From: Alphaproteobacteria bacterium
Lineage (GTDB): Bacteria; Pseudomonadota; Alphaproteobacteria; UBA828
Assembly (NCBI GenBank): GCA_963667785.2
Contig: CAXXMU010000001.1
Location: 32,001 to 96,000, forward strand
Length of the DNA: 64,000 nucleotides
Direction: 5' to 3'
Of the stretch, positions 1,841 through 64,000 are shown piece by piece (the first letter of the stretch is position 1; every line of letters begins with the position of its first letter). The notes under the pieces were generated by a model. The model was not told the DNA's origin. It saw only the letters and a list, made by a program, of their open reading frames with translations, and did not search any database. Both the position numbers and the translations under genes were made by a program.

Positions 1841-3130
1841 TCAGTTCAGGACCGCGTCGCCCGAGAGCAGGTGGAAGCCGCGCAGCAGGTCGATGGCGCG
1901 GGCGAGCTGATAGTCGTTCTCCGCCGGGTCGTCCGCCGCCTCTTCCGGCGCGGTGTCCCCGTCGGTCCCGGCGTCGTCCGGGCCGGTATTGTCGAGCTGC
2001 CCCCTCAGGTCCCCCTCGCGGTGCTCGGGCTCCGGCTCCTGCTGCGGCCGGATCCGTTCGACGACGATGTCCGGCTCGATCCCGTTCGCCTGGATGTCGC
2101 GGCCGGCCGGCGTGAAGTAGTGCGCGGTGGTGAGACGCAGCGCCCCGCGCCCGCTGGGAAGGGGGAGAACCGTCTGCACCGAGCCCTTGCCGAAGGAGCG
2201 GGTACCGAGAATGACCGCGCGCCGGTGGTCCTGCAGCGCGCCGGCGACGATCTCCGACGCCGATGCCGATCCGCCGTTGATCAGCACCACCATCGGCGCG
2301 CCGTCGATGATGTCGCCGCCCTCGGCGCTGAAGCGCTGCGCGCTGTCGGCCCGGCGCCCCCGCGTCGAGACGATCTCGCCGCGCTCCAGGAACGCATCCG
2401 AGACGGCGATCGCCTGTTCGAGGAGACCGCCCGGATTGTTCCGCAGGTCGAGCACGGCACCGAGCGCCCGATCGCCGGTCTCGTCCCACAGATCGCCGAC
2501 GATCTCCTCGAGATCGTCGGCGGTGCGCTCGGAGAACGTCGAGATCCGCGCGAGGATGACGTCGTCGTCCACCACCCGCGCGCGTACCGAACGGATCTTG
2601 ATGATCGCGCGCGTGATCGGGACCTCGAGGGCTTCATCCAGGCCGCTGCGGCGGATGGTCAGCCTGATCTCGGAATCGGCCGGGCCGCGCATCTTGTCGA
2701 CCGCCTGCTGGAGGGTGAGGCCCTGCACCGGCTCGCCGTCGAGATGGGTCACCAGGTCGCCCGGCTCGATGCCGGCGCGCTGGGCGGGCGTGTCGTCGAT
2801 CGGCGCGATCACCTTGACCAGGCCGTTCTCCATCGTCACCTCGATGCCGAGGCCGCCGAACTCACCGCGGGCCTGGACCTGGACTTCCCTGAAGCTCTTG
2901 GGATCGTGGTACTTGGAGTGCGGGTCGAGCGAGGCGATCATGCCGTCGATGGCGGCCTCGATCAGCTCCGAGGTGTCCACGTCCTCGACGTAGTCGTCGC
3001 GGATATGCTCGAGAATGTCGCCGAACAGATCGAGCTGCTCGTAGGTTTCCGCAGCCTCCTGAGCCGGTGCCAGGGCCGGGAGGCTAGCCATCATCAGGCC
3101 GGCGATGCCGGCTGCGAGAACTCGTTTCAT
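1841..3130 (-). CDS. ctpA: S41 carboxyl-terminal processing protease
   Basis: Signal peptide, [43 protein letters not shown]; start MKRVLAAG with RBS. Confidence 0.92.
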
Positions 3131-3275
3131 CCTGTCCTTCGACCGTAGCGCCGGCTGTCCGCTGTCAGCGCGGACCATGATATCTCTCGCCGACGAAGTT
3201 GATCAACCAGCGCGTCCCTGCAGCGCCGTATCCGCTGCAGCATCTGCACGCGCTTCTGCCCGAGCCGGTCCGCCC

Positions 3276-3963: not shown

Positions 3964-4614
3964 ATGGACTTCAATTCGCAAGAGCGAATCGGCCTCTTCA
4001 TCGACGGCGCGAATTTGTATGCCGCCGCGCGTTCGCTCGGTTTCGACATAGACTACAAGCGCTTGCGCGAGGAATTCGCGGACAAGGGCCGCCTCATCCG
4101 CGCCCTCTATTACACCGCTCTCGTCGAGGACCAGGAGTATTCGCCCATCCGGCCGCTGGTCGACTGGCTCGACTACAACGGCTACACGCTGGTCACGAAG
4201 CCGACCAAGGAGTTCACCGATTCCATGGGCCGGCGCAAGGTCAAGGGCGACATGGACATCGAGATCGCCGTCGACATGATGATCATGGCGGAGGCGCTCG
4301 ACCATATCGTGCTGTTTTCCGGCGACGGCGATTTTCGCCGGGTGGTCGAGGCGGTGCAGCACCGGGGCGTGCGGGTATCCGTGGTCAGCACCCTTCGCTC
4401 CCAGCCGCCCATGATCGCCGACGAGCTGCGCCGCCAGGCCGACAGCTTCATCGAGCTGCAGGAGCTCGAGCCCCTGATCGCGCGCGAGCCCAAGTGGCGC
4501 AACGAGCGTCCCCGCGCCGTGAGGGAGCCGATGGACGGCGAGTACGACGAGTACGAGGACGACGGCGACGGTGACGGGGGCGAGATGGTCGACGAGGTGT
4601 CGCACTCGGCGTGA
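3964..4614 (+). CDS. NYN/LabA (DUF88) domain protein
   Basis: FIDGANLY, KGDMDIEIAVD, LFSGDGDF, ELRRQAD; conserved position between folK and UDG in alphaproteobacteria. Confidence 0.9.
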   Translation: MDFNSQERIGLFIDGANLYAAARSLGFDIDYKRLREEFADKGRLIRALYYTALVEDQEYSPIRPLVDWLDYNGYTLVTKPTKEFTDSMGRRKVKGDMDIEIAVDMMIMAEALDHIVLFSGDGDFRRVVEAVQHRGVRVSVVSTLRSQPPMIADELRRQADSFIELQELEPLIAREPKWRNERPRAVREPMDGEYDEYEDDGDGDGGEMVDEVSHSA

Positions 4615-12810: not shown

Positions 12811-14214
12811 TCAGCCGGCCCAGACGTTCTCGCGGACGAGGTCGTTCTGGGTCGCGATGATGCTCTCCCGCAGGGTCTCGACGAGCTGGTCGATCTGATC
12901 GCGGGTGAGCGTCAGCGGCGGCGAGAGCACGTTCATGTGGCCGAGCGGGCGCACCAGCAGGCCGCGCTCCCGGCAGTGGTGGGTGATCCGCGCGCCGATC
13001 TTGGCATCGAGGTCGAAGACCTCCCGCGTCTCCTTGTCCTTCACCGCCTCCACGCACATCATGAACTTGCTGCCGCGCACGTCGCCGATGAGCGGCAGCG
13101 TCAGAAGCTCGCCCAGCCGCTCCTCGAAGTAGGGGCCGACCTCGCGCACGTGGCTGCACAGGTCCTCGCGCTCCATGATCTCGATGTTCTTCAGCGCCGC
13201 GGCGCAGGAGACCGGGTGCCCGGCATAGGTGAAGCCGTGGGTGAAGAGCGCGCCCTTGGACTGGGGCACGCTGATGACCTCGTAGATGGCATCGGAGAAG
13301 AGCGTCGCCGCGTGCGGGATGTAGCCGGACGTGAGCCCCTTGGCCGAGGTGATGATGTCGGGGGTGATGTCGAACACGGGCTCCGAGGCGAAGAAGTGCC
13401 CGAGCCGCCCGAAGCCCGTCACCACCTCGTCCGAGATGTAGAGCACCTCGTACTTCTCGCACACCGCCTTGGTGCGGGCGTGGTAGCCGGGCGGGGGCAC
13501 GATCACGCCGCCGCCGCCCATGATCGGCTCGGCGATGAAGCAGGCGACGTTCTCCGGCCCGAGCTCAAGGATCTTGTTCTCGAGGTCGGCGACCTTCTCG
13601 TCGCAGAACTCCTCCACGCTCATGCCGGCCGGGCGGCGGTAGGTGTGGGGCGCCGGGATGTGGTGCACCAGGTCGGGCGCGAGGTCGAAGCCGTCATGGT
13701 CGAACTTCACGCCGGTCATGGTCATCGCGAGGTAGGTCGAGCCGTGGTAGGCGTCGACGCGGGAGATGATCTTCTTCTTCTCCGGCTTGCCGAGCCGGTT
13801 GAAGTAGAAGTGGATGACGCGGACGGCGGTGTCGTTCGCCATCGATCCGCCGGTGCCGTAGAAGACGTGGTTGATGGAGGCGGGCGCGAGCTCGGCCAGC
13901 TTCGCCGCGAGCTCCGCCGCCGGCGGCGTCGTCAGATGCGTGAAGGTCGAGTAATAGGGGATGCGACGCACCTGATCGGCCATCGCCTGGGCCATCTCGT
14001 CGCGGCCGTAGCCGATGTTGACGCACCACAGCCCGCCGATGCCGTCCATGTAGCGCTCGCCCTCGGCGTTGTAGACGTAGACCCCGTCTGCCTCCGCCAT
14101 GACCTCCGAGCCTTCCTGCTTGAAGGTCGAGAAGTCCGTCCAGGGATGGATGTTGTGGTGCAGGTCCTTCTGCCGAAGGTCCTCGTTGTCGTACTGGGTG
14201 AAATTCGCCCTCAT
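12811..14214 (-). CDS. Class III (omega-amine) aminotransferase
   Basis: DGIGGLWCVNIGYG, AYHGST, FIAEPIMG, DEVVTGFGRLG, AKGLTSGY, HGFTYAGHP. Confidence 0.92.
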   Translation of the reverse strand: MRANFTQYDNEDLRQKDLHHNIHPWTDFSTFKQEGSEVMAEADGVYVYNAEGERYMDGIGGLWCVNIGYGRDEMAQAMADQVRRIPYYSTFTHLTTPPAAELAAKLAELAPASINHVFYGTGGSMANDTAVRVIHFYFNRLGKPEKKKIISRVDAYHGSTYLAMTMTGVKFDHDGFDLAPDLVHHIPAPHTYRRPAGMSVEEFCDEKVADLENKILELGPENVACFIAEPIMGGGGVIVPPPGYHARTKAVCEKYEVLYISDEVVTGFGRLGHFFASEPVFDITPDIITSAKGLTSGYIPHAATLFSDAIYEVISVPQSKGALFTHGFTYAGHPVSCAAALKNIEIMEREDLCSHVREVGPYFEERLGELLTLPLIGDVRGSKFMMCVEAVKDKETREVFDLDAKIGARITHHCRERGLLVRPLGHMNVLSPPLTLTRDQIDQLVETLRESIIATQNDLVRENVWAG

Positions 14215-30053: not shown

Positions 30054-31514
30054 CTACGCCGCCTGCTTGGCCTGTAGCCCGTTCTCGTCCACCCAGCGTG
30101 TGGTGTCGTCGAGGGCCAGCGTGAAGCGGCGCATCATTTCCTCGACCTCCGCCTCGGTCATCACCAGGGGCGGCGCGAAGGCGAGGCTGTCGCCGGCGAG
30201 CGCGCTCCGGATGATCAACCCGTGCTCGCGGGCGCGGTCCACCGCATAGGCCTTCACGCCGCAGGCCGGGTCGAACGAGCGCCGGGTCTCCTTGTCCGCC
30301 ACCAGCTCGATGGCCGCCATCATGCCGACGCCGCGGGTGGTGCCCACCAGCGGATGGTCGGCGAAGCCCCGGATGCGCTCCTGCAGCAGCGCGCCCACGC
30401 GGCGCACGTTGCCGAGCACGTCGCGCTCCTCCATCAGCTCCTGGCAGCGAAGCGCCACCGCCACCGCCACCGGGTGCCCGGTGGTGGTGAACGCGTGGGC
30501 GAAGAAGCCCAGCTTGCGGCTCTCGGCCAGCATGGCGTCGTAGAGCTTCTGGTTGATCATCACCGCCGAGATCGGCTGGTAGGCGCTGGCCAGCCCCTTC
30601 GCGAGCGAGAGGCCGTCCGGCCTGATGTCGAAGGTCTCCGAGCCCAGCCAGTTGCCGGTCCTGCCCGAGCCGGTGATGACCTCGTCGGCGAAGAAGAGGA
30701 TCTCGTACCTGTCGAGCACCGCCTGCACCTTCTCGAAGTAGGTGCGGGGCGGCACGATGCAGCCGCCGCCGCCCATCACGGGCTCGGCGAAGAAGGCGGC
30801 GACCGTCTCCGGCCCCTCGCGCTGGATCAGCTCCTCGAGGTTGGCGGCGAGGCGTGAGGCGTAGTCCTCCTCGCTCTCGCCCGGCTCGCCGTAGCGGTAG
30901 AAGTGGGGGCAGTCGGTCTTGAGGAAGAGGTCGTTGACCGGCAGGTCGAAGTCCGTGTGCATCTGCGGGATGCCGGTGACGCTGGCGGCGCCGCAGGTCA
31001 CGCCGTGGAAGCCCATGAAGCGGGAGATGATCTTCTTCTTCTCCGGCTTGCCGATGGCGTTGTGGTAGTACCAGGCGAGCTTGACCAGCGTGTCGTTCGC
31101 CTCCGAGCCAGAGTTGGCGAAGAAGACCCGCGCCATCGGCACGTGGGTGGAGGCCTTGAGCCGCTCGGCGAGGCGCCCCATGGGCTCGGTCGTCTTGTCG
31201 ATCAGCGAGTGGTAGTAGGGGAGCGCGCGGAACTGCTCGATCGCGGCATCCACCAGCGCGCTCTCGCTGAAGCCGAAGTTGGCGCACCACATGCCGGCGA
31301 CGCCCTCGATGTAGTCGCGGCCCTCCTCGTCGACGATCGAGACTCCCCGCCCGCGGGTGACGACAAGCGGCGGCGTCTTCTCCAGCGCGTCGAGGTTGCC
31401 GTAGCCGTGGGCGACGTGGGCCACGTTGCGCGCGCCCAGCGAGTTCGGCTTGGCCGCGGGCGCGGCGCTCTCTGCACCGTCGTTGTCGGGTCTGCTGCTG
31501 GCATCGTCCATCAC
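30054..31514 (-). CDS. Class III aminotransferase
   Basis: GVAGMWC, NSGSEAND, FFAEPVMG, DEVITG, AKGLASAY. Confidence 0.9.
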   Translation of the reverse strand: MMDDASSRPDNDGAESAAPAAKPNSLGARNVAHVAHGYGNLDALEKTPPLVVTRGRGVSIVDEEGRDYIEGVAGMWCANFGFSESALVDAAIEQFRALPYYHSLIDKTTEPMGRLAERLKASTHVPMARVFFANSGSEANDTLVKLAWYYHNAIGKPEKKKIISRFMGFHGVTCGAASVTGIPQMHTDFDLPVNDLFLKTDCPHFYRYGEPGESEEDYASRLAANLEELIQREGPETVAAFFAEPVMGGGGCIVPPRTYFEKVQAVLDRYEILFFADEVITGSGRTGNWLGSETFDIRPDGLSLAKGLASAYQPISAVMINQKLYDAMLAESRKLGFFAHAFTTTGHPVAVAVALRCQELMEERDVLGNVRRVGALLQERIRGFADHPLVGTTRGVGMMAAIELVADKETRRSFDPACGVKAYAVDRAREHGLIIRSALAGDSLAFAPPLVMTEAEVEEMMRRFTLALDDTTRWVDENGLQAKQAA

Positions 31515-53980: not shown

Positions 53981-54394
53981 GTGGACGCGGGTCCCCTCAC
54001 GCCCCCCTTCGACGAGAGCGCCGCCCGCGCCGTCGTCCAGGCCTTCGAGGACGCCTGGAACCGCAGGGTCGCCGAGGAGATCCCCGGAACCTGCACGGCG
54101 GACACGCGCTGGCGCTATCGCGATGCGTTCGTCGAGGGGCGGGACAGTATCGTGCCGTTCCTGCGCGCGCGCTGGCCGATACAGGAGCACTACCGGCTGA
54201 GGAAGGAGCTCTGGAGCTTCACCGCCAACCGCATCTCGGTGCGCTTCGTCAGCGAGTGGCGTCACCGCGACAGCGGCCAGTGGTACCGGACCTTCGGCAA
54301 CGAGCACTGGGAGTTCGCGGCGGACGGCCTGCAGAGCGTGCTCGATCTCTCGGCCAACGACGTGCCCATCGACGAGGCCGAACGGAGCCTCTGA
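53981..54394 (+). CDS. DUF1348 / SnoaL-like (NTF2 fold) protein
   Basis: PPFD...A...VQAFEDAWN, YRLRKELW, WYRTFGNEHWEF. Confidence 0.88.
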   Translation: MDAGPLTPPFDESAARAVVQAFEDAWNRRVAEEIPGTCTADTRWRYRDAFVEGRDSIVPFLRARWPIQEHYRLRKELWSFTANRISVRFVSEWRHRDSGQWYRTFGNEHWEFAADGLQSVLDLSANDVPIDEAERSL

Positions 54395-54397
54395 GCC

Positions 54398-54433
54398 TCA
54401 CCAGCCGAGCGCGCGGCTCATGCGCCGGGGGTC
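54398..54433 (-). repeat. Orphan copy of the last 12 codons of ggt (direct repeat of 56400-56435)
   Basis: 34/36 identical; both copies translate DPRRMSRALGW*. Confidence 0.9.
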
Positions 54434-56367
54434 TGGGCCGCCTCCCGTCCCGCGATAGAAACGAAATTGCTGTGGAAGGTGGAATTCCCGCCGAGATCGG
54501 CCGGGGCATCGGGGGTTGTCGCGTTCGCGTTTGCTCCCCAGCGGACCATATAGCTCACCAGCAGGCCGGGCTGAACGCGCTCGCTCAGTCGCGCGATGAG
54601 GTTTACCGTGCCGCGTTCGTTCCAGAGCATCACCGCATCCCCGTCCGCAATTCCTTCGCTCACGGCGTCTTCGGGATGAATAAACACGGCCGGCTCCTTC
54701 ACCGCTGCAAATTTGCGGGCAACATTGAACACCTGGCTTGCCTGCAAATGTTGAGTCTTCGGCGTGATGAGACGATAGGGATGTCCGCTGTCCGACGCGG
54801 CCGCGGAATACGCAGGAACGACGAGCTCCAATTTGCCGCTCGCCGTCGGGAAGCGGCCGTCATCGAAGTTGGTGCGTCGGCTATTCGTGCACAGTACCGG
54901 CCCCTCCTGCAGGTCCTCGAAGCGAAGCCCGGTTTCTGCAATGAGCGCGCGAATGACCTCCTCCTCGGTCTCGCGGAAGCACGGCTCCGTGTATCCCATA
55001 TGGCGCGCGATCTCGCGAAACACCCAGTAGTTGGAACGCGATTCGCCAACCGGCTCGATCGCCGGATTGTTGATCTGTGCGTAGTCGTGCCAGTACGAAC
55101 GATGGAGATCGATCTGCTCTGCGTAGGAGCAGGCCGGCAATACGACGTTCGCCCGCTCGGCCGTGTCCGTCATGAAGCTGTCATGCACGACAACGAACAG
55201 GTCTTCGCGCGCCAGACCCTGCCAGACAAGCGCCTGATTGGGTGAGGTCGCGGCAGCGTTCGAATTGTACACATAGAGAGCCTTGATCGCGTCGTCCGCG
55301 GTCAGGGCTTTGCCCAGCGTGACCATGTTGTAGAGGCGTGGGCCTTGGGTTCTCAGTGAGCTGTGACTGATGTCGTTGAAATTCCAGTCGTAATTGGCAT
55401 AGAGAGCGCCGCCGCCGGGGACGCCGACCTGCCCTGTCAAGGCGGCGAGCATGCAGATCGACGACACCATCTCGCCGCCATTCAGATTGCGCTGAAGGCC
55501 AACCCCGATGTGAATCAATCCTGGCCGGTTCTTGGCGTAGAGCTCGGCGAATGCGGTTATCTGCGCATGCGGGACGCCGGTGATGCGGGCTGCATCGTCC
55601 AGCGACACCGACAGGACTTTCTCGCGCAACGCGTCGAATCCGTTTGTCTTCTCCGCAAGGAATTCCCTGTCGATCCAGTCGCGCTCGATCAGGACCCGCA
55701 TGACCGCCATGGCGAGCATGGAATCGGTCGACGGTCTTGGTTGGATGTGCATGTCCGCGACCTGAGCGGAATCCGAGCGGTAGGGGTCGATCACGACGGT
55801 GGGGTGTATGTCCTTCGTCAGAACGTGGCCGTGGACGTTGGTCGCCTTGGGATTCTTGCCCCAGACCACGTAGCAGCGAGTCTTGTCCAAATGAAATGTT
55901 TCAGTGCCGAGCACGGTGCCGAAGATCCTAAGCACCGCCTCGACACCGGCCATGGCGCAGATTTCGGTGCCGACCCGGCTGGTGTTCATCCTGTTCCATA
56001 GCCGGTCGGCAAGGCGATTCGAGACCATGCCCATGTGGCCGAGATAGTGGTACGGCAGAATGGCCTCGCCACCGGATACCTCGATGATGTCGGAAAACCG
56101 GCGGGCTATCGCGCCGAGGGCTTCGTCCCAGCTTGCACGGCGAAAGGGGTCGGACTTGTGCTCCCGCACGAGCGGAAACAGAAGCCTGTCGGGATGGTGA
56201 ACGAGCTCTTCGTAGTGCTGGTAGCGCCCGCACAGAAACCCCTGGGTAATGGGATGTTCGGGATCGCCCTTCACCTCCACGACCTTCCCGTCGCTTACCC
56301 GGGTGAGCATGCTGCACGTGTCGGGGCAGTCTTTCGGACAGACGGACTTGACGGTTCTCGTTGCCAT
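54418..56367 (-). CDS. Molybdopterin-dependent oxidoreductase (DMSO reductase family, cytoplasmic)
   Basis: CPKDCPDTC..C Fe-S motif, WGKNP, PRPSTD, DSFMTDTA..A.VVLPA, IHPEDA; lower GC than flanks. Confidence 0.9.
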   Translation of the reverse strand: MATRTVKSVCPKDCPDTCSMLTRVSDGKVVEVKGDPEHPITQGFLCGRYQHYEELVHHPDRLLFPLVREHKSDPFRRASWDEALGAIARRFSDIIEVSGGEAILPYHYLGHMGMVSNRLADRLWNRMNTSRVGTEICAMAGVEAVLRIFGTVLGTETFHLDKTRCYVVWGKNPKATNVHGHVLTKDIHPTVVIDPYRSDSAQVADMHIQPRPSTDSMLAMAVMRVLIERDWIDREFLAEKTNGFDALREKVLSVSLDDAARITGVPHAQITAFAELYAKNRPGLIHIGVGLQRNLNGGEMVSSICMLAALTGQVGVPGGGALYANYDWNFNDISHSSLRTQGPRLYNMVTLGKALTADDAIKALYVYNSNAAATSPNQALVWQGLAREDLFVVVHDSFMTDTAERANVVLPACSYAEQIDLHRSYWHDYAQINNPAIEPVGESRSNYWVFREIARHMGYTEPCFRETEEEVIRALIAETGLRFEDLQEGPVLCTNSRRTNFDDGRFPTASGKLELVVPAYSAAASDSGHPYRLITPKTQHLQASQVFNVARKFAAVKEPAVFIHPEDAVSEGIADGDAVMLWNERGTVNLIARLSERVQPGLLVSYMVRWGANANATTPDAPADLGGNSTFHSNFVSIAGREAAQTPGA

Positions 56368-56399
56368 GCCCGCTCCTGCGCGCAGCCGGCGCCGGCCTG

Positions 56400-58118
56400 T
56401 CACCACCCCAGCGCGCGGCTCATGCGCCGGGGGTCGGCGGCGCCCTCGATGGCGCCCGTCTCGAGGTCCTTGCGCACCGCGCAGACCCCGCCGGTCCAGT
56501 GCGACCAGTCACCCAAGCGCTCGATGCGGTGTCCGCGCGCGGCGAGCCGCTCGCCCGTCGCCTCGTCGATGCGCCCCTCGACGGTGACGAGGCCAGGATA
56601 AGCTGCGTTTGGCGCGAACGAATCCGGGTGGCTGTGGGTGACGAGACGGGGAGCCTCCACCGCATCCTGCAGCCCCATGCCGAAGACCAGGTGGCCGAGC
56701 AGCGTCTGCAGGTTCGCCTGGATCTGCGTATCGCCGCCCGGGGTGCCGAAGGGCATGATCCAGCGGCTGGGAGAGAGCGCGAAGCAGGGATTGGGTGTGA
56801 GCCGGGGCCGCTTGCCCGGCGCGATGCAGGAGGGGTGGCCCCGCACCGCCCGCGACTGCGCCCCGCGCGAGGAGACCGCGAGCCCGCAGCCGGGCACCAC
56901 CGGCGTGTCCCAGCTCGTGTCCGACGGCGTCGAGCAGAGGCCGTTCCCGTCCGCGTCGATCACGCAGACGATCGAGGTATCGGGCGGCGGCCCGAGCGGC
57001 GCCTCGCTCGCGGCGACCGGGGGAACATGCGCCTCGTGGCCCGGAATCCTGCCGGGAAGGGGCATTCCGGGCGACGCCTTGTGCGGGTCGATCGCCCTGC
57101 TGCGCTCCGCCGCGTAGGGTCGGCCGAGGAGCGTATCGAGGGGGACGTCCACGAAGTCCGGGTCGCCGAGATAGCCTTCCCTGTCGGCGAAGGTGAGCTT
57201 GAGGGTCTCCGCGATCGTGTGGAGATACGCGTCCGAGCCGTGCTCCTGCGCCACCACGCCGGCCGTCTCGGCGATGGAGAGCGCTTCCAGCAGGAAGGGG
57301 CCCTGGCACCAGGCGCCGCAGGTGTGGATCTCCACCTCCTCGCCACCGAGCCGGAAGCGCCGCGAGACCGAGGGCACGACCTGGCAGCGGAACGAGGCGA
57401 GGTCGTCGGCCGCGAGCAGCCCGTCCTCCGCCTTCTGGTGCGCGAGGATGTGGCTCGCGATATCGCCCCGGTAGAACGCACGGCGCACCGCGGCGAGGCC
57501 GGCCATGCGATCGTCGCCCGCCGCGCGCTCCTCGTCGCAGAGGAATTGCAGGACCCGGCCGAGATCGCTCTGGACCAGCCGCTCGCCCGGCTGCGGCACG
57601 GTGCCGCCGGGCATCCAGATGGCGACGTTCTCCGGCCAGTGCCGGAAGTCGTCGGCGTACTTCTGCACGTAGTCGAGCATGACCGGGTGACGGGGGAAGC
57701 CCTCGCAGGCGTAGCGCACCGCGCGTGCCGCCACGTCGCGGAAGGCCATCGTGCCCCATCGCTCCAGGGCCTGGATGCAGGCGTCGGGAGCGGCCGGCAC
57801 CACGGTACGCCGCACCCCGAGCGGGATCTCGCCCCCATGGCGCTGGATGAAGGCTTCGGCGTCGAGCGCCTGCGGCCAGCCGCCGACGCCCGCGATGGTG
57901 ACTACCTCGCCGGTCTCCGCGAGGCGGACGATCATGGGCGCGACCCCGGCGACGCTCACCTGGTCGCTGTAGACCACGCCGAGGGTCAGGATCGCGGCGA
58001 CGCCGGCGTCGATCGCGTTGCCGCCGTTCTCCAGAGCTTCGAACGCGGCCAGCGTCGCGAGCTCATGGCCCGCGCTGACGACATGGTGATGACCACGGGC
58101 GACGGGCACGACGGACAT
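56400..58118 (-). CDS. ggt: Gamma-glutamyltransferase family protein
   Basis: GGNAIDAGVA, ADRE..LGDP, nucleophile DTS, PGKRPRLT, GTPGGD, GAADPRR. Confidence 0.9.
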   Translation of the reverse strand: MSVVPVARGHHHVVSAGHELATLAAFEALENGGNAIDAGVAAILTLGVVYSDQVSVAGVAPMIVRLAETGEVVTIAGVGGWPQALDAEAFIQRHGGEIPLGVRRTVVPAAPDACIQALERWGTMAFRDVAARAVRYACEGFPRHPVMLDYVQKYADDFRHWPENVAIWMPGGTVPQPGERLVQSDLGRVLQFLCDEERAAGDDRMAGLAAVRRAFYRGDIASHILAHQKAEDGLLAADDLASFRCQVVPSVSRRFRLGGEEVEIHTCGAWCQGPFLLEALSIAETAGVVAQEHGSDAYLHTIAETLKLTFADREGYLGDPDFVDVPLDTLLGRPYAAERSRAIDPHKASPGMPLPGRIPGHEAHVPPVAASEAPLGPPPDTSIVCVIDADGNGLCSTPSDTSWDTPVVPGCGLAVSSRGAQSRAVRGHPSCIAPGKRPRLTPNPCFALSPSRWIMPFGTPGGDTQIQANLQTLLGHLVFGMGLQDAVEAPRLVTHSHPDSFAPNAAYPGLVTVEGRIDEATGERLAARGHRIERLGDWSHWTGGVCAVRKDLETGAIEGAADPRRMSRALGW

Positions 58119-60873: not shown

Positions 60874-61313
60874 CGGATGCCTCGCGCGTGCCCAATATAT
60901 GAAGACGTGGGTATGTGACGCGCTGCATCAACGGGCGGAACGCCCCGCGCATGGCTGAAATTAACTTATGGAAACCCGAAGATACGCTGCGGCGTGCCGC
61001 CGCCGCGGTGCTGCCGCCCGCGAGCGCATCCATGCCCGTGGCGCATCGTGACGAAGCGACGTTCATCAGGACTCGCATGCCAGATGACGCATTTGCCCAC
61101 AGATGAAGGATAAATTCACGCGGATGCGGTGATCCGCGGGGACACGAGCAACATATAGGTACAGATAGTGAAATGATTGAAGGCAGTTTTGGGTACAACG
61201 TCTTCTACACTATGAACAGACTTTCGATTTATAGACTCATATATTTGTCTATTAAATCATATTAGTTTTGAGAAAATAGATTATACTACGACACCGCAAG
61301 AGGGAGACTTGCG

Positions 61314-62477
61314 ATGCGCGATCGGATCCCTAACCGCCGCTTGCGAGACCGGCTCCCCCGTCCCCTGCCCATCCTGGCTACCGCACTGGCGTTGATGCTC
61401 GCGCTCGGGTCGCTTCCGACCCAGGCGGACGAGCAGGCCGCCGTGCCCAGGGACTGGGGTATCGGCATGTTCGGGGTCGAGAACTGCGTCGGCACCCTCC
61501 AGTACGTGCAGGACGACGTCACCCCGGCCACCGACTGCGCCATCGAGCAGGTGTTCTCGAGGCTCGCCGACAGCGCGCTGCAGCTCGTCGAGCGCCACGG
61601 CAAGGCGCAGTTCGGCGAGCACTTCCATATCGACCGCCGGCTCGGGCTCACCGCGTCGACCGGCACGCTGAGCGCCGACCTGGACGTGATCCTGCCGCTG
61701 AGTGCGCTCTCCTCGGTCGAGGGCGATGTAACGATGCGCTCCTTCTTCGTCCAGAACGGGGTGACGCGGTGGCGCGATGCGCGCGGCTTCCAGCGCAGCG
61801 ACGTGCGCCTCGGCGCGGTGCACCGCCATGCGCTCTTCGAGGAGCCGGGCGACGGGGTCATCGGCGCCTCGATGTTCGTGCAGGAGAACCTCGAGCGGGG
61901 CCACGCGCGGCTGGTGACCGGACTGGAGTATCTGGACCGCTGGGGCCAGGGCTCGCTCACCTACTACATGCCGACGACCGACTGGCGGCCCGGGCACTAT
62001 GGCTACGAGGAGCGGGCGATCGCGGGCGCGGAGCTCGCCTACAGCGCGGACCTGACCACGACCGTCCACCTGCGCGCCGCCGCCGGCCGCTGGGAGAGCC
62101 GGGACGGCTCCGGCGCATGGGCGGAGCGGGCGCGCCTCGGCCTCGGCTGGCAGCCGCATCCGTGGTTCGAGGTGCAGGGCGGCTGGGACGACGTGGGGGC
62201 GGGCGACGATTCGGTTGCGCTGCACGCATCTGTCTCGATCCCGCTGGGCGTCCTCGACCGCTCGGACCTGCGCTGGGAGGGCCTCGGCCGCCGCGACCCG
62301 GCGTCCCGCGAGGCCGAGGACGGCACCATCTGGCAATCGGTCGACCACGTGGGGCAGATCGAGGTCGTGGAACGTAGAAGTTCTTCGTTGTCGGGAACTG
62401 CAGACAATGCGGAGGGAAGAATACCTATCCCGCCATACTTGCCGGGGATATGGAAGCGCAACCAAGACGACGTTTGA
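61314..62477 (+). CDS. Inverse-autotransporter (intimin/invasin-like) beta-barrel protein lacking a passenger
   Basis: Signal peptide; DVILPL, GHARLVTGLEY, YYMPTTDW, YEERAIAG, QPHPW, linker-like VDHVGQIEVVER. Confidence 0.7.
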   Translation: MRDRIPNRRLRDRLPRPLPILATALALMLALGSLPTQADEQAAVPRDWGIGMFGVENCVGTLQYVQDDVTPATDCAIEQVFSRLADSALQLVERHGKAQFGEHFHIDRRLGLTASTGTLSADLDVILPLSALSSVEGDVTMRSFFVQNGVTRWRDARGFQRSDVRLGAVHRHALFEEPGDGVIGASMFVQENLERGHARLVTGLEYLDRWGQGSLTYYMPTTDWRPGHYGYEERAIAGAELAYSADLTTTVHLRAAAGRWESRDGSGAWAERARLGLGWQPHPWFEVQGGWDDVGAGDDSVALHASVSIPLGVLDRSDLRWEGLGRRDPASREAEDGTIWQSVDHVGQIEVVERRSSSLSGTADNAEGRIPIPPYLPGIWKRNQDDV

Positions 62478-62505
62478 GCCGCCTCGAAAAAGGGAGGTGA
62501 CATTG

Positions 62506-63105
62506 GTGGTCAGGAAACTTTCCCCCATAGTAGCAACCGTGCTGGGTGCGCTTGTTGTTGCTCAAGTGCTTTCGGGTTGCGGCGGAAACGGCGAAGAGCC
62601 TCTTGAAATAAACGGACCGAAAAAAAAGAATATAGTTTGGGGCGGAGCCGCTTATAGTGTTCCCGATTCAGTGCCGTATGGCGATCCTTACGTTTGTCTG
62701 CAAAATGCATACGTCGTTCGCTTGGCAGAAGGCGAGGCCCCTAATGAGCTCGCTGGCATTCGGGCAAACGAGGCATGCCGCAACTTACTAACCGACCCGT
62801 TTCTCGGTTGTCGCATAGACGGCATCCGCTCTGGCAGTCATTGGGGTTACGGCAGCGATCAATATCAGGTGCCGACCAATGACTATTATCGGTTCCGTCG
62901 GACTAACCCGCCCGACCCAACGGACAGGCCCTGTATTGCGTACGCCGAGGCGAGGCATAATACCGACCACTATTGCGAATCCGCCAGCGCAATTTCAACG
63001 TCGATTAGTGGTGCAAGCGCTAGCGCTCTCTCTAGGTGTCGCTATATCGTGAATGGTACCCGGCCCTGTACCGTCAAGTATACCTACTGCATACCGGATT
63101 TTTGA
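62506..63105 (+). CDS. Cys-rich lipoprotein, DUF4189-like C-terminal domain
   Basis: GGAGG RBS, lipobox VLSG-C, C-terminal CIAYA...A...ALSRC......C......C pattern; low GC. Confidence 0.6.
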   Translation: MVRKLSPIVATVLGALVVAQVLSGCGGNGEEPLEINGPKKKNIVWGGAAYSVPDSVPYGDPYVCLQNAYVVRLAEGEAPNELAGIRANEACRNLLTDPFLGCRIDGIRSGSHWGYGSDQYQVPTNDYYRFRRTNPPDPTDRPCIAYAEARHNTDHYCESASAISTSISGASASALSRCRYIVNGTRPCTVKYTYCIPDF

Positions 63106-63232
63106 GTATTGGTACATTCTAATAGAGATACGCTCGAAAGTGCGGCCGGGATGAGTTGAAGCATACGGTGCGCCCATTCTGGCATCGGCCGGAGAACTGC
63201 ACAGTTGCGGCCAGAAGAGCACTTCGCCCCGG

Positions 63233-63697
63233 CTACCCCGACCCGTTGCGCGAGGGAACCTGGGTCAGTGCCCGGCCGGAGAGCACGGTGCGCTCGCCCA
63301 CGCTGCAGGTGGTCTCGAACTCGACCCGGCAGCGCTCCGGGATAAGACGGTCCACCACCGCGCGTGCCACCACCTCGTCGCCGGGATAGACCGGCGCGGT
63401 GAAGCGCAGCGACTGAGAGAGGTAGACGCAGCCCGGCCCCGGCATGCGGGTGCCGATCACCGTCGAGATCAATGCTGCGGTGCACATGCCGTGCACGACC
63501 CGGCCCTTGAAGAGCGAGCGTTCGGCAAACTCGTCGTCGAAGTGCAGCGGGTTGGTGTCGCCGGTGAGGTCGGCGAAGAGCCGCATCGCGGAATCGCTGA
63601 TGACGCGGCTGTAATCCGCACTCATGCCGATGGTCAGATCCTCGTAGAAGTAGCCGGTCCGGGCATTGCCCGGGGCCGCTTCCGCCCGCTGCACCAT
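63233..63697 (-). CDS. MaoC/PhaJ family (R)-specific enoyl-CoA hydratase
   Basis: FADLTGDTNPLHFD, RVVHGM, GTRMPGPG..YLSQSLRF.APV. Confidence 0.9.
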   Translation of the reverse strand: MVQRAEAAPGNARTGYFYEDLTIGMSADYSRVISDSAMRLFADLTGDTNPLHFDDEFAERSLFKGRVVHGMCTAALISTVIGTRMPGPGCVYLSQSLRFTAPVYPGDEVVARAVVDRLIPERCRVEFETTCSVGERTVLSGRALTQVPSRNGSG

Positions 63698-63734
63698 GAT
63701 CGAATTCCCTCCCTCGGCGTTGCTGTGCGGCAGG

Positions 63735-63752
63735 ATTGTGCAGTGCAGCAAT
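63735..63752. promoter_or_regulatory. Candidate PhaR-type TGC-rich operator
   Basis: ATTGTGCAGTGCAGCAAT about 40 bp upstream of the maoC/phaJ-like start. Confidence 0.4.
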
Positions 63753-63947
63753 GAGACTGTAAAGCGCGCGCCTGCGGGATCGTCCCGGCTGCCGCCGGCG
63801 CTCCCGGCCGCCGTCCCCCCCGCGCGCGGCCGCCCTGTTCGCCCGTGCGCTCGTTCTGTATATGTGGCGCAGCATTTGAGGCGCTGCATAGGTGGCGCAC
63901 TGGCCGGGTCGGCACAGGCGGCGCGGCAACAAGCGGGAGGTGAACCG

Positions 63948-64000
63948 ATGGCCAAGTTTCCGACGGTACGTACACCGACGATCGAGGAGGTGCTCGACAT
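63948..64000 (+). CDS. Start of a CDS running off the window (possibly an amidase)
   Basis: GGAGG RBS then MAKFPTVRTPTIEEVLD; only 17 codons visible. Confidence 0.45.
   Translation, partial: MAKFPTVRTPTIEEVLD

Follow-up and report, generated by a model that had tools for sequence, protein, structure and literature searches.

A horizontally acquired molybdopterin oxidoreductase gene inserted between convergent DUF1348 and ggt genes and flanked by a duplicated ggt end in an alphaproteobacterial genome

We analysed a window of 64,000 nt from an alphaproteobacterium of the UBA828 lineage (genome G000 below; assembly GCA_963667785.2, contig CAXXMU010000001.1, positions 32,001 to 96,000 of the forward strand), in which a gene for a molybdopterin oxidoreductase lies between two copies of the 3' end of ggt, the gamma-glutamyltransferase gene. 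The locus begins with a DUF1348 gene (53981–54394, plus strand; Pfam PF07080, 150 bits) that is convergent with ggt and ends in a TGA at 54392–54394. It continues with a 3-nt spacer, GCC (54395–54397), an orphan 36-nt copy of the ggt 3' end (copy A, 54398–54433), an 8-nt junction zone, TGGGCCGC (54434–54441), the 642 canonical codons of the oxidoreductase (54442–56367, minus strand) and a 32-nt leader that runs from the ggt stop to the oxidoreductase ATG (56368–56399, minus strand). Upstream of the oxidoreductase and on the same strand lies ggt itself (56400–58118, minus strand; PF01019, 311.6 bits), whose last 36 nt form the working end (copy B, 56400–56435) and which is 84–86% identical at the nucleotide level to its orthologues in 12 species of the genus. 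A preliminary description of this DNA, made from the letters alone, had compared the two ggt ends to attL and attR sites around a cassette with one metabolic gene and no integrase.

The repeat pair is as that description had it. The copies are identical at 34 of 36 positions, with mismatches at repeat positions 7 and 10; both read DPRRMSRALGW* on the minus strand; and copy A stands 3 bp from the DUF1348 stop. When searched with up to three mismatches, the 36-mer pattern matched the window exactly twice and none of 100 shuffles at all, and its 25-nt exact core occurs at just these two places in the whole genome of 4,094,588 bases (4.09 Mb). A repeat search stretched the pair to 45 nt at 89% identity, with a spacing of 2002. 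Because the 9 nt past the 36-mers match at six of nine places, a value that random pairs of 9-mers from the window reached in 2.5% of 20,000 draws (P about 0.025), the duplicated ggt end is at least 36 nt and perhaps about 45 nt long. Between the copies the guanine-plus-cytosine (GC) content drops to 0.585–0.64 from about 0.70–0.75 outside, and of the 64 bins of 1 kb in the window, the one at 55001–56000 has the lowest value, 0.602.

The locus was compared across 20 other species of the genus, within a set of 49 genomes of the order. In half of these species (G001, G004, G005, G007, G008, G010, G012, G014, G017 and G018) the TGA of DUF1348 is followed directly by the ggt stop, with 0 nt where G000 carries the GCC spacer. 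Both JGI metagenome contigs with a ggt end, found by a scan with the 25-nt core, show the same empty site. No cassette DNA was found in any of the 20 species and no oxidoreductase protein at E 1e-150 or better; two ggt ends occur in G000 alone among the 49 order genomes, 14 others having one. The empty sites bear out the pre-insertion arrangement that had been proposed: the cassette is an insertion into a pre-existing junction between DUF1348 and ggt. This junction is also disturbed in four other species, by inserts of 268–333 nt at the same spot in three (G003, G013 and G019), with inverted ends like those of miniature inverted-repeat transposable elements (MITEs), and by a partial duplication of 18 nt in one (G020), made up of a 12-nt orphan ggt end and 6 further nt. 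Two species (G002 and G011) have the DUF1348 flank with no ggt orthologue adjoining, and four gave no match at threshold (G006 and G009, which are 67% and 62% complete, G015 and G016).

Several of these junctions have features of their own. In G020 (L005, G020:C5, about 260.7 kb) the orphan end, which reads LGW*, and the sequence TGGGGA stand between the two stops in a miniature of the geometry of the window. The MITE-like family measures about 250–330 nt and has inverted ends near GGTGAGAAATGCGGGCTAG (L014 in G019, L006 in G013, L008 in G003); in each of these three relatives a copy occupies precisely the DUF1348–ggt junction and gives DUF1348 a TAG stop, as it does at a loose contig end in metagenome run X3. 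G000 itself holds 61 matches to the MITE-like end at up to four mismatches, at least eight of them as inverted pairs about 250 nt apart (e.g., C1:365424/365671 and C6:794437/794684). In G003 (L119, G003:C1:2808300–2812100), DUF1348 is interrupted by two identical tandem elements of the IS110 family, each of 1567 nt and each with a transposase of 472 residues (PF01548 and PF02371). The ggt orthologue of G012 (G012:C9:256142–256698) matches parts 2803–3139 and 4493–4584 of the query alone, and most of the gene is seemingly deleted.

Where does the inserted gene come from? The oxidoreductase open reading frame (ORF) has a GC content of 61.2%, and of 77.1% at third codon positions, compared with 72.4% and 91.4% for ggt, which agrees with the lower GC first remarked upon. 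Homologues of 65–77% identity were found, among the order genomes, solely in genera g4 (one of one) and g25 (seven of ten) of the same family, where their GC content equals that of their surroundings (55–65%); the homologue in genome G023 has 77% amino acid identity. A sample of 400 further genomes of the class gave none at E 1e-250, and the matches listed by a genome-contig search for related loci were 31–41% identical. In an IQ-TREE phylogeny, obtained by a quick search because the careful one did not complete, proteins P0001 and P0002 group with an 87%-identical metagenomic cluster (P0003 and P0122–P0135) known from ENA and Logan assemblies, with ENA contigs of up to 3.76 Mb (Shimodaira–Hasegawa-like approximate likelihood ratio test, SH-aLRT, 99), and this group is nested in a clade (SH-aLRT 98) whose genome-resolved members all belong to g4 or g25. 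Given a composition unlike that of its host and this nesting, the oxidoreductase gene was acquired horizontally from a lower-GC lineage of the same family. A donor locus with the gene downstream of ggt, which had been suggested, was not seen: ten homologue loci from eight genomes have no ggt, DUF1348 or 36-mer-like sequence within about 1.5 kb.

At the joint, the original stop of the foreign gene is gone. Among the 58 best homologues listed, 642 residues is the commonest length (19 of 58), and the proteins end 3–5 residues after an FVS motif, just as an earlier end near FVSI had been predicted; C-termini in the nearest cluster read FVSISRQE* or FVAISGQE*, and that of G023 reads FVSVSRQT*, ending at residue 642. 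In G000, residue 642 is the E of FVSIAGRE (54442–54444), GCG stands in the expected place of the stop, and the frame runs on for seven further codons, as AAQTPGA*, to a TGA in the orphan ggt copy. Copy A contributes a single base of the Gln codon, the final four complete codons (TPGA) and the TGA at 54418–54420, which lies outside the ggt frame, so that the borrowed stop is as first described; the full ORF (54418–56367) has 649 codons plus the stop. Since residue 642 is followed by GCG and not by a stop, the foreign DNA stops at or within a few nt of its last sense codon. The 8-nt zone occupies the place where the canonical stop and 3' flank of the foreign gene would be expected and matches ggt at five of eight positions at the same offset after copy B; it may be diverged ggt sequence or filler. 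At the other joint, the leader has a GC content of 87.5% and recurs nowhere else in the genome, its best second match being exact over 19 nt, at C6:549167. By our own rough estimate about 0.1–0.3 such matches would occur by chance in a genome of this size at 70% GC, and we rejected templated filler as its source because chance can give the best match. By eye, candidates for microhomology at the joints are of 3–4 nt (GAG, GACC, TGA); the nearest DNA compared, that of G023, is 74% identical and too distant to judge them by.

This arrangement is real, fixed in the lineage and older than the divergence of its strains. A contig of 2631 nt from run X1, a sponge metagenome of an independent study, spans 54139–56767 and both joints with 62 differences (a strain about 2.4% divergent) and no gaps, a contig of 2048 nt from run X18 is identical over 54400–56436, and run X19 holds two contigs that are about 2% different. 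The protein of another strain, P0002, ends in the same tail, with differences at 13 of 649 residues. That the genome is in 14 contigs with an estimated contamination of 6.6%, and that related strains share the same samples, could have suggested a misassembly or chimeric contig; but the X1 contig bridges both joints, and four contigs in four public sources (NCBI, JGI/IMG, Logan and ENA) encode a protein that is 98% identical and has the fused tail as well. An artefact is thus hardly credible, and as far as contigs can show it is already refuted.

The product is a cytoplasmic molybdopterin oxidoreductase of the bis(pyranopterin guanine dinucleotide) (bis-PGD) type, which we assign to no named enzyme of the superfamily, such as formate dehydrogenase or nitrate or DMSO reductase. 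The full domain set of this type is present, an N-terminal Fe4S4 domain (PF04879, 49.5 bits), a molybdopterin domain (PF00384, 142 bits) and a dinucleotide-binding domain (Molydop_binding, PF01568, 66.3 bits), each above its Pfam cut-off. Among the 25 listed of 26 matched NCBIfam families, no equivalog cut-off was reached, the best being Fdh-alpha with 302 bits vs a cut-off of 666. The likely start is the ATG at 56367, which follows an AGGAG by 6 nt. A promoter and terminator scan found nothing promoter- or terminator-like between ggt and the oxidoreductase, and RNA structure around the ggt stop and leader was unremarkable (z-score −0.62). As the oxidoreductase gene shares its strand with ggt, starts 32 nt after it and has a ribosome-binding site of its own, while neither a promoter nor a terminator is visible between the two, it is probably co-transcribed with ggt.

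Neighbouring genes at the homologue loci were recorded as well. In genus g25 (L110, 3437–4915 of G048, with similar starts in L111–L116), a gene like those of class-I glutamine amidotransferases, with a marginal Peptidase_C26 match, follows the oxidoreductase within about 10 nt and is itself followed by an amidase; in G023 (L015, 2645–4408) the oxidoreductase is followed by a gene for an SBP_bac_5 solute-binding protein. One may speculate that these neighbours, together with the landing behind ggt, hint at a tie of the oxidoreductase to gamma-glutamyl or amide metabolism.

The two mismatches between the ggt ends had been read as the mark of two once-functional alleles. Both do fall at third codon positions and are synonymous, but no other site in the final 12 nt of ggt is freely synonymous; because any change that survives in the working copy must fall at these two, their placement is weak evidence for two once-functional ends, and that reading does not hold. 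The orphan copy reads CCAGCCGAG in G000 and in G020, and the working copy reads CCACCCCAG in G000 and CCAACCCAG in G020, so that working and orphan copies differ at the same two third-codon positions in both duplicated genomes (window 56400–56411 vs 54398–54409; L005). Among 15 single-copy sequences (13 species and two contigs), position 7 is G in all and position 10 is G in four and C in 11. The working copy thus has the C at position 10 of the 11, whereas its C at position 7 occurs in none; a changed position 7 is found in two of two working copies vs none of 15 single-copy sequences (exact test about 0.007, for relatives that are not independent). Since the allele CCAGCCGAG occurs in four of the 15 (G005, G010, G018 and contig L117), the orphan copy looks like ordinary host sequence. 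We infer that the mismatches arose after the duplication.

Is the cassette mobile? The direct repeats are of the attL/attR type in their geometry, and the integrase is lacking nearby, as had been noted: of 16 matches to the tyrosine-recombinase family PF00589 in the genome, none lies in the window, and the nearest on the contig is about 366 kb off. The sole gene inside the repeats is the oxidoreductase, which leaves no transposase there, and the search for terminal inverted repeats gave a best end-to-end inverted alignment that scored 7, equalled by 410 of 500 shuffles. The distance from the canonical last codon to the orphan copy, where an integron attC would have to fit, is 8 nt, although no dedicated attC model was run. 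In the 16 junctions read (14 relatives and two metagenome contigs), no integrative element was found at this site, and a genome-wide scan for isolated short direct repeats gave no other low-GC unit of this clean geometry, three further low-GC matches being left aside. An excision joint (54397/54433 to 56400/56436) was absent from the contigs of four runs; as rare forms are lost in contigs, its absence does not argue against excision. The geometry of the earlier proposal stands, but site-specific mobility is not supported: none of the other order genomes has two ggt ends, and the repeats enclose just 8 and 32 non-coding nt.

Some contig ends and joints in these runs were set aside. The loose ends at 56400–56402 in X18 and X3 come from other organisms, one like G018, whose empty site is seen, and one like G019, whose MITE end is seen, and are not excision products of this strain. 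Three weak joints, 54039 to 56564 in X18 (side 20), 56366 to 56399 in X3 (depth 3.5, side 30) and 54329 to 55937 in X3 (side 21), were not used because each rests on a single contig with a short side and 88% likeness. The same genome does hold a classic integrated island, in contrast to the cassette: at G000:C2:72071–91683, a 47-nt exact direct repeat that resembles a tRNA 3' end bounds 19.6 kb at 64.6% GC.

What is the mechanism of insertion? The account that we favour, and to which we give slightly better than an even chance, is a one-off, illegitimate and recombinase-independent insertion of a single horizontally acquired gene at the touching stops of DUF1348 and ggt, with duplication of the last 36 nt of ggt. 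It is favoured because there is no recombinase in the window, no room for arm sites and no sister element, and because the stop of the gene was destroyed. The foreign gene arrived by horizontal transfer from the lower-GC lineage of the family. By the most likely route, a strand under replication or repair would then have departed from the chromosome within the end of ggt, taken the foreign DNA as its template and come back at the stop codon of ggt, switching templates twice; this event would also have made a second copy of the final 36 nt of ggt, and possibly of up to about 45 nt. As an outcome, ggt is whole by virtue of copy B, and the orphan end, copy A, has stayed beside DUF1348. Classical end joining is unlikely, since neither Ku (PF02735) nor LigD (TIGR02779) was found in the genome, which is an estimated 98% complete.

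Several points weigh against this account. With classical end joining set aside, template switching or short-homology routes are left as candidates, the microhomologies at the two joints are putative, and the 8-nt zone and the GC-rich 32-nt leader are of uncertain origin. The insert is strikingly gene-sized, its 3' flank being absent and its 5' flank no longer than 32 nt, which a random illegitimate event does not predict, and mobility keeps a small probability, as rare excised forms would be invisible in contigs. The working copies of G000 and G020 both differ from the orphan at the same two sites, with a base at position 7 that no single-copy relative has. Drift after duplication explains this repeated pattern poorly. 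It is fitted better by two alleles joined by recombination, or by a nucleotide-level constraint that stayed with the orphan copy, as the ggt end also stands directly behind DUF1348; mutagenic repair at the break is a third possible reading.

The joining of two alleles by recombination is at the centre of an explanation that we consider unlikely, namely that an unsampled congener already carried ggt followed by the oxidoreductase. The import would have recombined by homology at one end, in ggt or in DUF1348, and joined illegitimately 36 nt before the resident ggt stop, so that the 36-mers would be alleles of two lineages. The allele distribution, with the orphan type in four of 15 single-copy relatives and the position-10 C of the working copy in 11, agrees with such an import, as does the repetition of the pattern in G020, and homology-facilitated illegitimate recombination (HFIR) is among the processes documented in PMC3240628. 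Yet the oxidoreductase was found in none of the 20 other species of the genus, so that no such donor is known, and the import would merely place the first insertion in a different genome. When ggt and DUF1348 were compared with 13 relatives in sliding windows (78–95% identity), no mosaic was revealed, although none of these is close enough to give the comparison power. It is quite improbable, in our judgement, that the 36-mers are attL and attR of a minimal site-specific element, moved in trans by an integrase elsewhere, or left behind by a decayed integrative element that targeted the ggt 3' end. Such a remnant would resemble the cis-mobilizable elements (CIMEs), which are defined, in the passages of PMC5704250 concerned with them, as having lost integration and transfer genes while keeping attL and attR. 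Direct repeats of a gene 3' end with the gene left intact, the 16 tyrosine-recombinase matches elsewhere in the genome and the classic island with its 47-nt exact tRNA-end repeats speak for it. The attP sites of tyrosine recombinases carry arm sites, however, for which the 8 and 32 non-coding nt inside the repeats leave no room; G000 is alone among the order genomes in having two ggt ends, the site holds no related integrase-bearing element in the 14 relatives and two metagenome contigs, and a pre-formed cassette would not need its stop to be destroyed at the joint.

Alternatively, a circular DNA that already carried 36–45 nt of the ggt end beside the foreign gene could have integrated by a Campbell-type single crossover at this short homology, duplicating the homologous segment, which we regard as very doubtful. 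RecA-dependent recombination has its lower limit near 36 nt, so that the repeat stands at the edge of what it can use; a prior chimera of host and foreign DNA is also required, which makes the route no simpler, and no such molecule or donor was seen. The geometry is nonetheless the same as in the Escherichia coli integrations described in PMC3240628, where circularised incoming DNA entered by a single crossover and duplicated the homologous segment, over 109–950 bp in 14 sequenced clones. There is, finally, a small chance that the junction of the DUF1348 and ggt stops is a recurrent hot spot of breakage, at which duplication-generating repair captures gene-sized foreign DNA without an integrase, or else that a minimal cassette is mobilised in trans, with the 36-mers as its functional att sites. 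If the hot-spot reading were true, the duplicated end would split two overlapping roles, that of the ggt C-terminus on one strand and that of the DUF1348 3' end on the other.

A one-off illegitimate insertion has likenesses to several known systems. With HFIR and the single crossover of circularised DNA, as PMC3240628 describes them, it shares the lack of a dedicated recombinase, joints at little or no homology and a recipient duplication that can flank the insert. The events described in that source are laboratory events with selected markers and duplications of 109–950 bp, whereas the present one is natural, fixed and gene-sized, with a duplication of 36 nt exactly at abutting stops. CIMEs and islands at the 3' ends of genes or tRNAs likewise have direct repeats of the target end bounding the insert and an intact target, but here there is no integrase or remnant of one, no arm-site space and no sister element in the 49 genomes, and the cargo gene is fused into the repeat. 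A duplicated target also flanks transposons and MITEs, and in three relatives the very junction studied here is occupied by members of a MITE-like family. Target-site duplications of transposons usually measure 2–14 nt, far below the 36 nt found here, and the insert has neither inverted ends nor a transposase. An integron cassette would similarly be a single ORF that lacks a promoter, has a very short leader and is expressed from upstream; here 8 nt follow the canonical ORF end, so that no attC is possible, and the window has no integrase.

Taken as a whole, the case looks like the natural capture of a single gene, well resolved and of a known kind, and not like a mobile element. For few natural acquisitions of single genes can both joints, the empty site and the source lineage all be seen. 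The present case illustrates that a foreign gene can be slotted between abutting convergent genes with neither damaged, that a duplicated gene end can both rescue ggt and provide a new stop codon, and that a newcomer can ride on the transcription of the gene upstream. It also urges caution, in that att-like direct repeats around a cargo gene do not alone mean a mobile element. As the same junction is disturbed in five species of the genus, G000 included, it may interest those who study insertion hot spots.

Other features of the genome came to light in the course of the repeat and composition scans. A second stretch of lower GC content (0.62–0.65) lies at the end of the window, at 61001–64000. 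The genome-wide repeat scan returned a 35-nt exact direct repeat (GCGGGAGATGATCTTC...) at window positions 13759–13793 and 31020–31054, 17,261 nt apart. Finally, arrays like those of clustered regularly interspaced short palindromic repeats, with exact repeats of 36–39 nt at regular spacing, are found at G000:C6:988645–990950 and C6:1139378–1140080.

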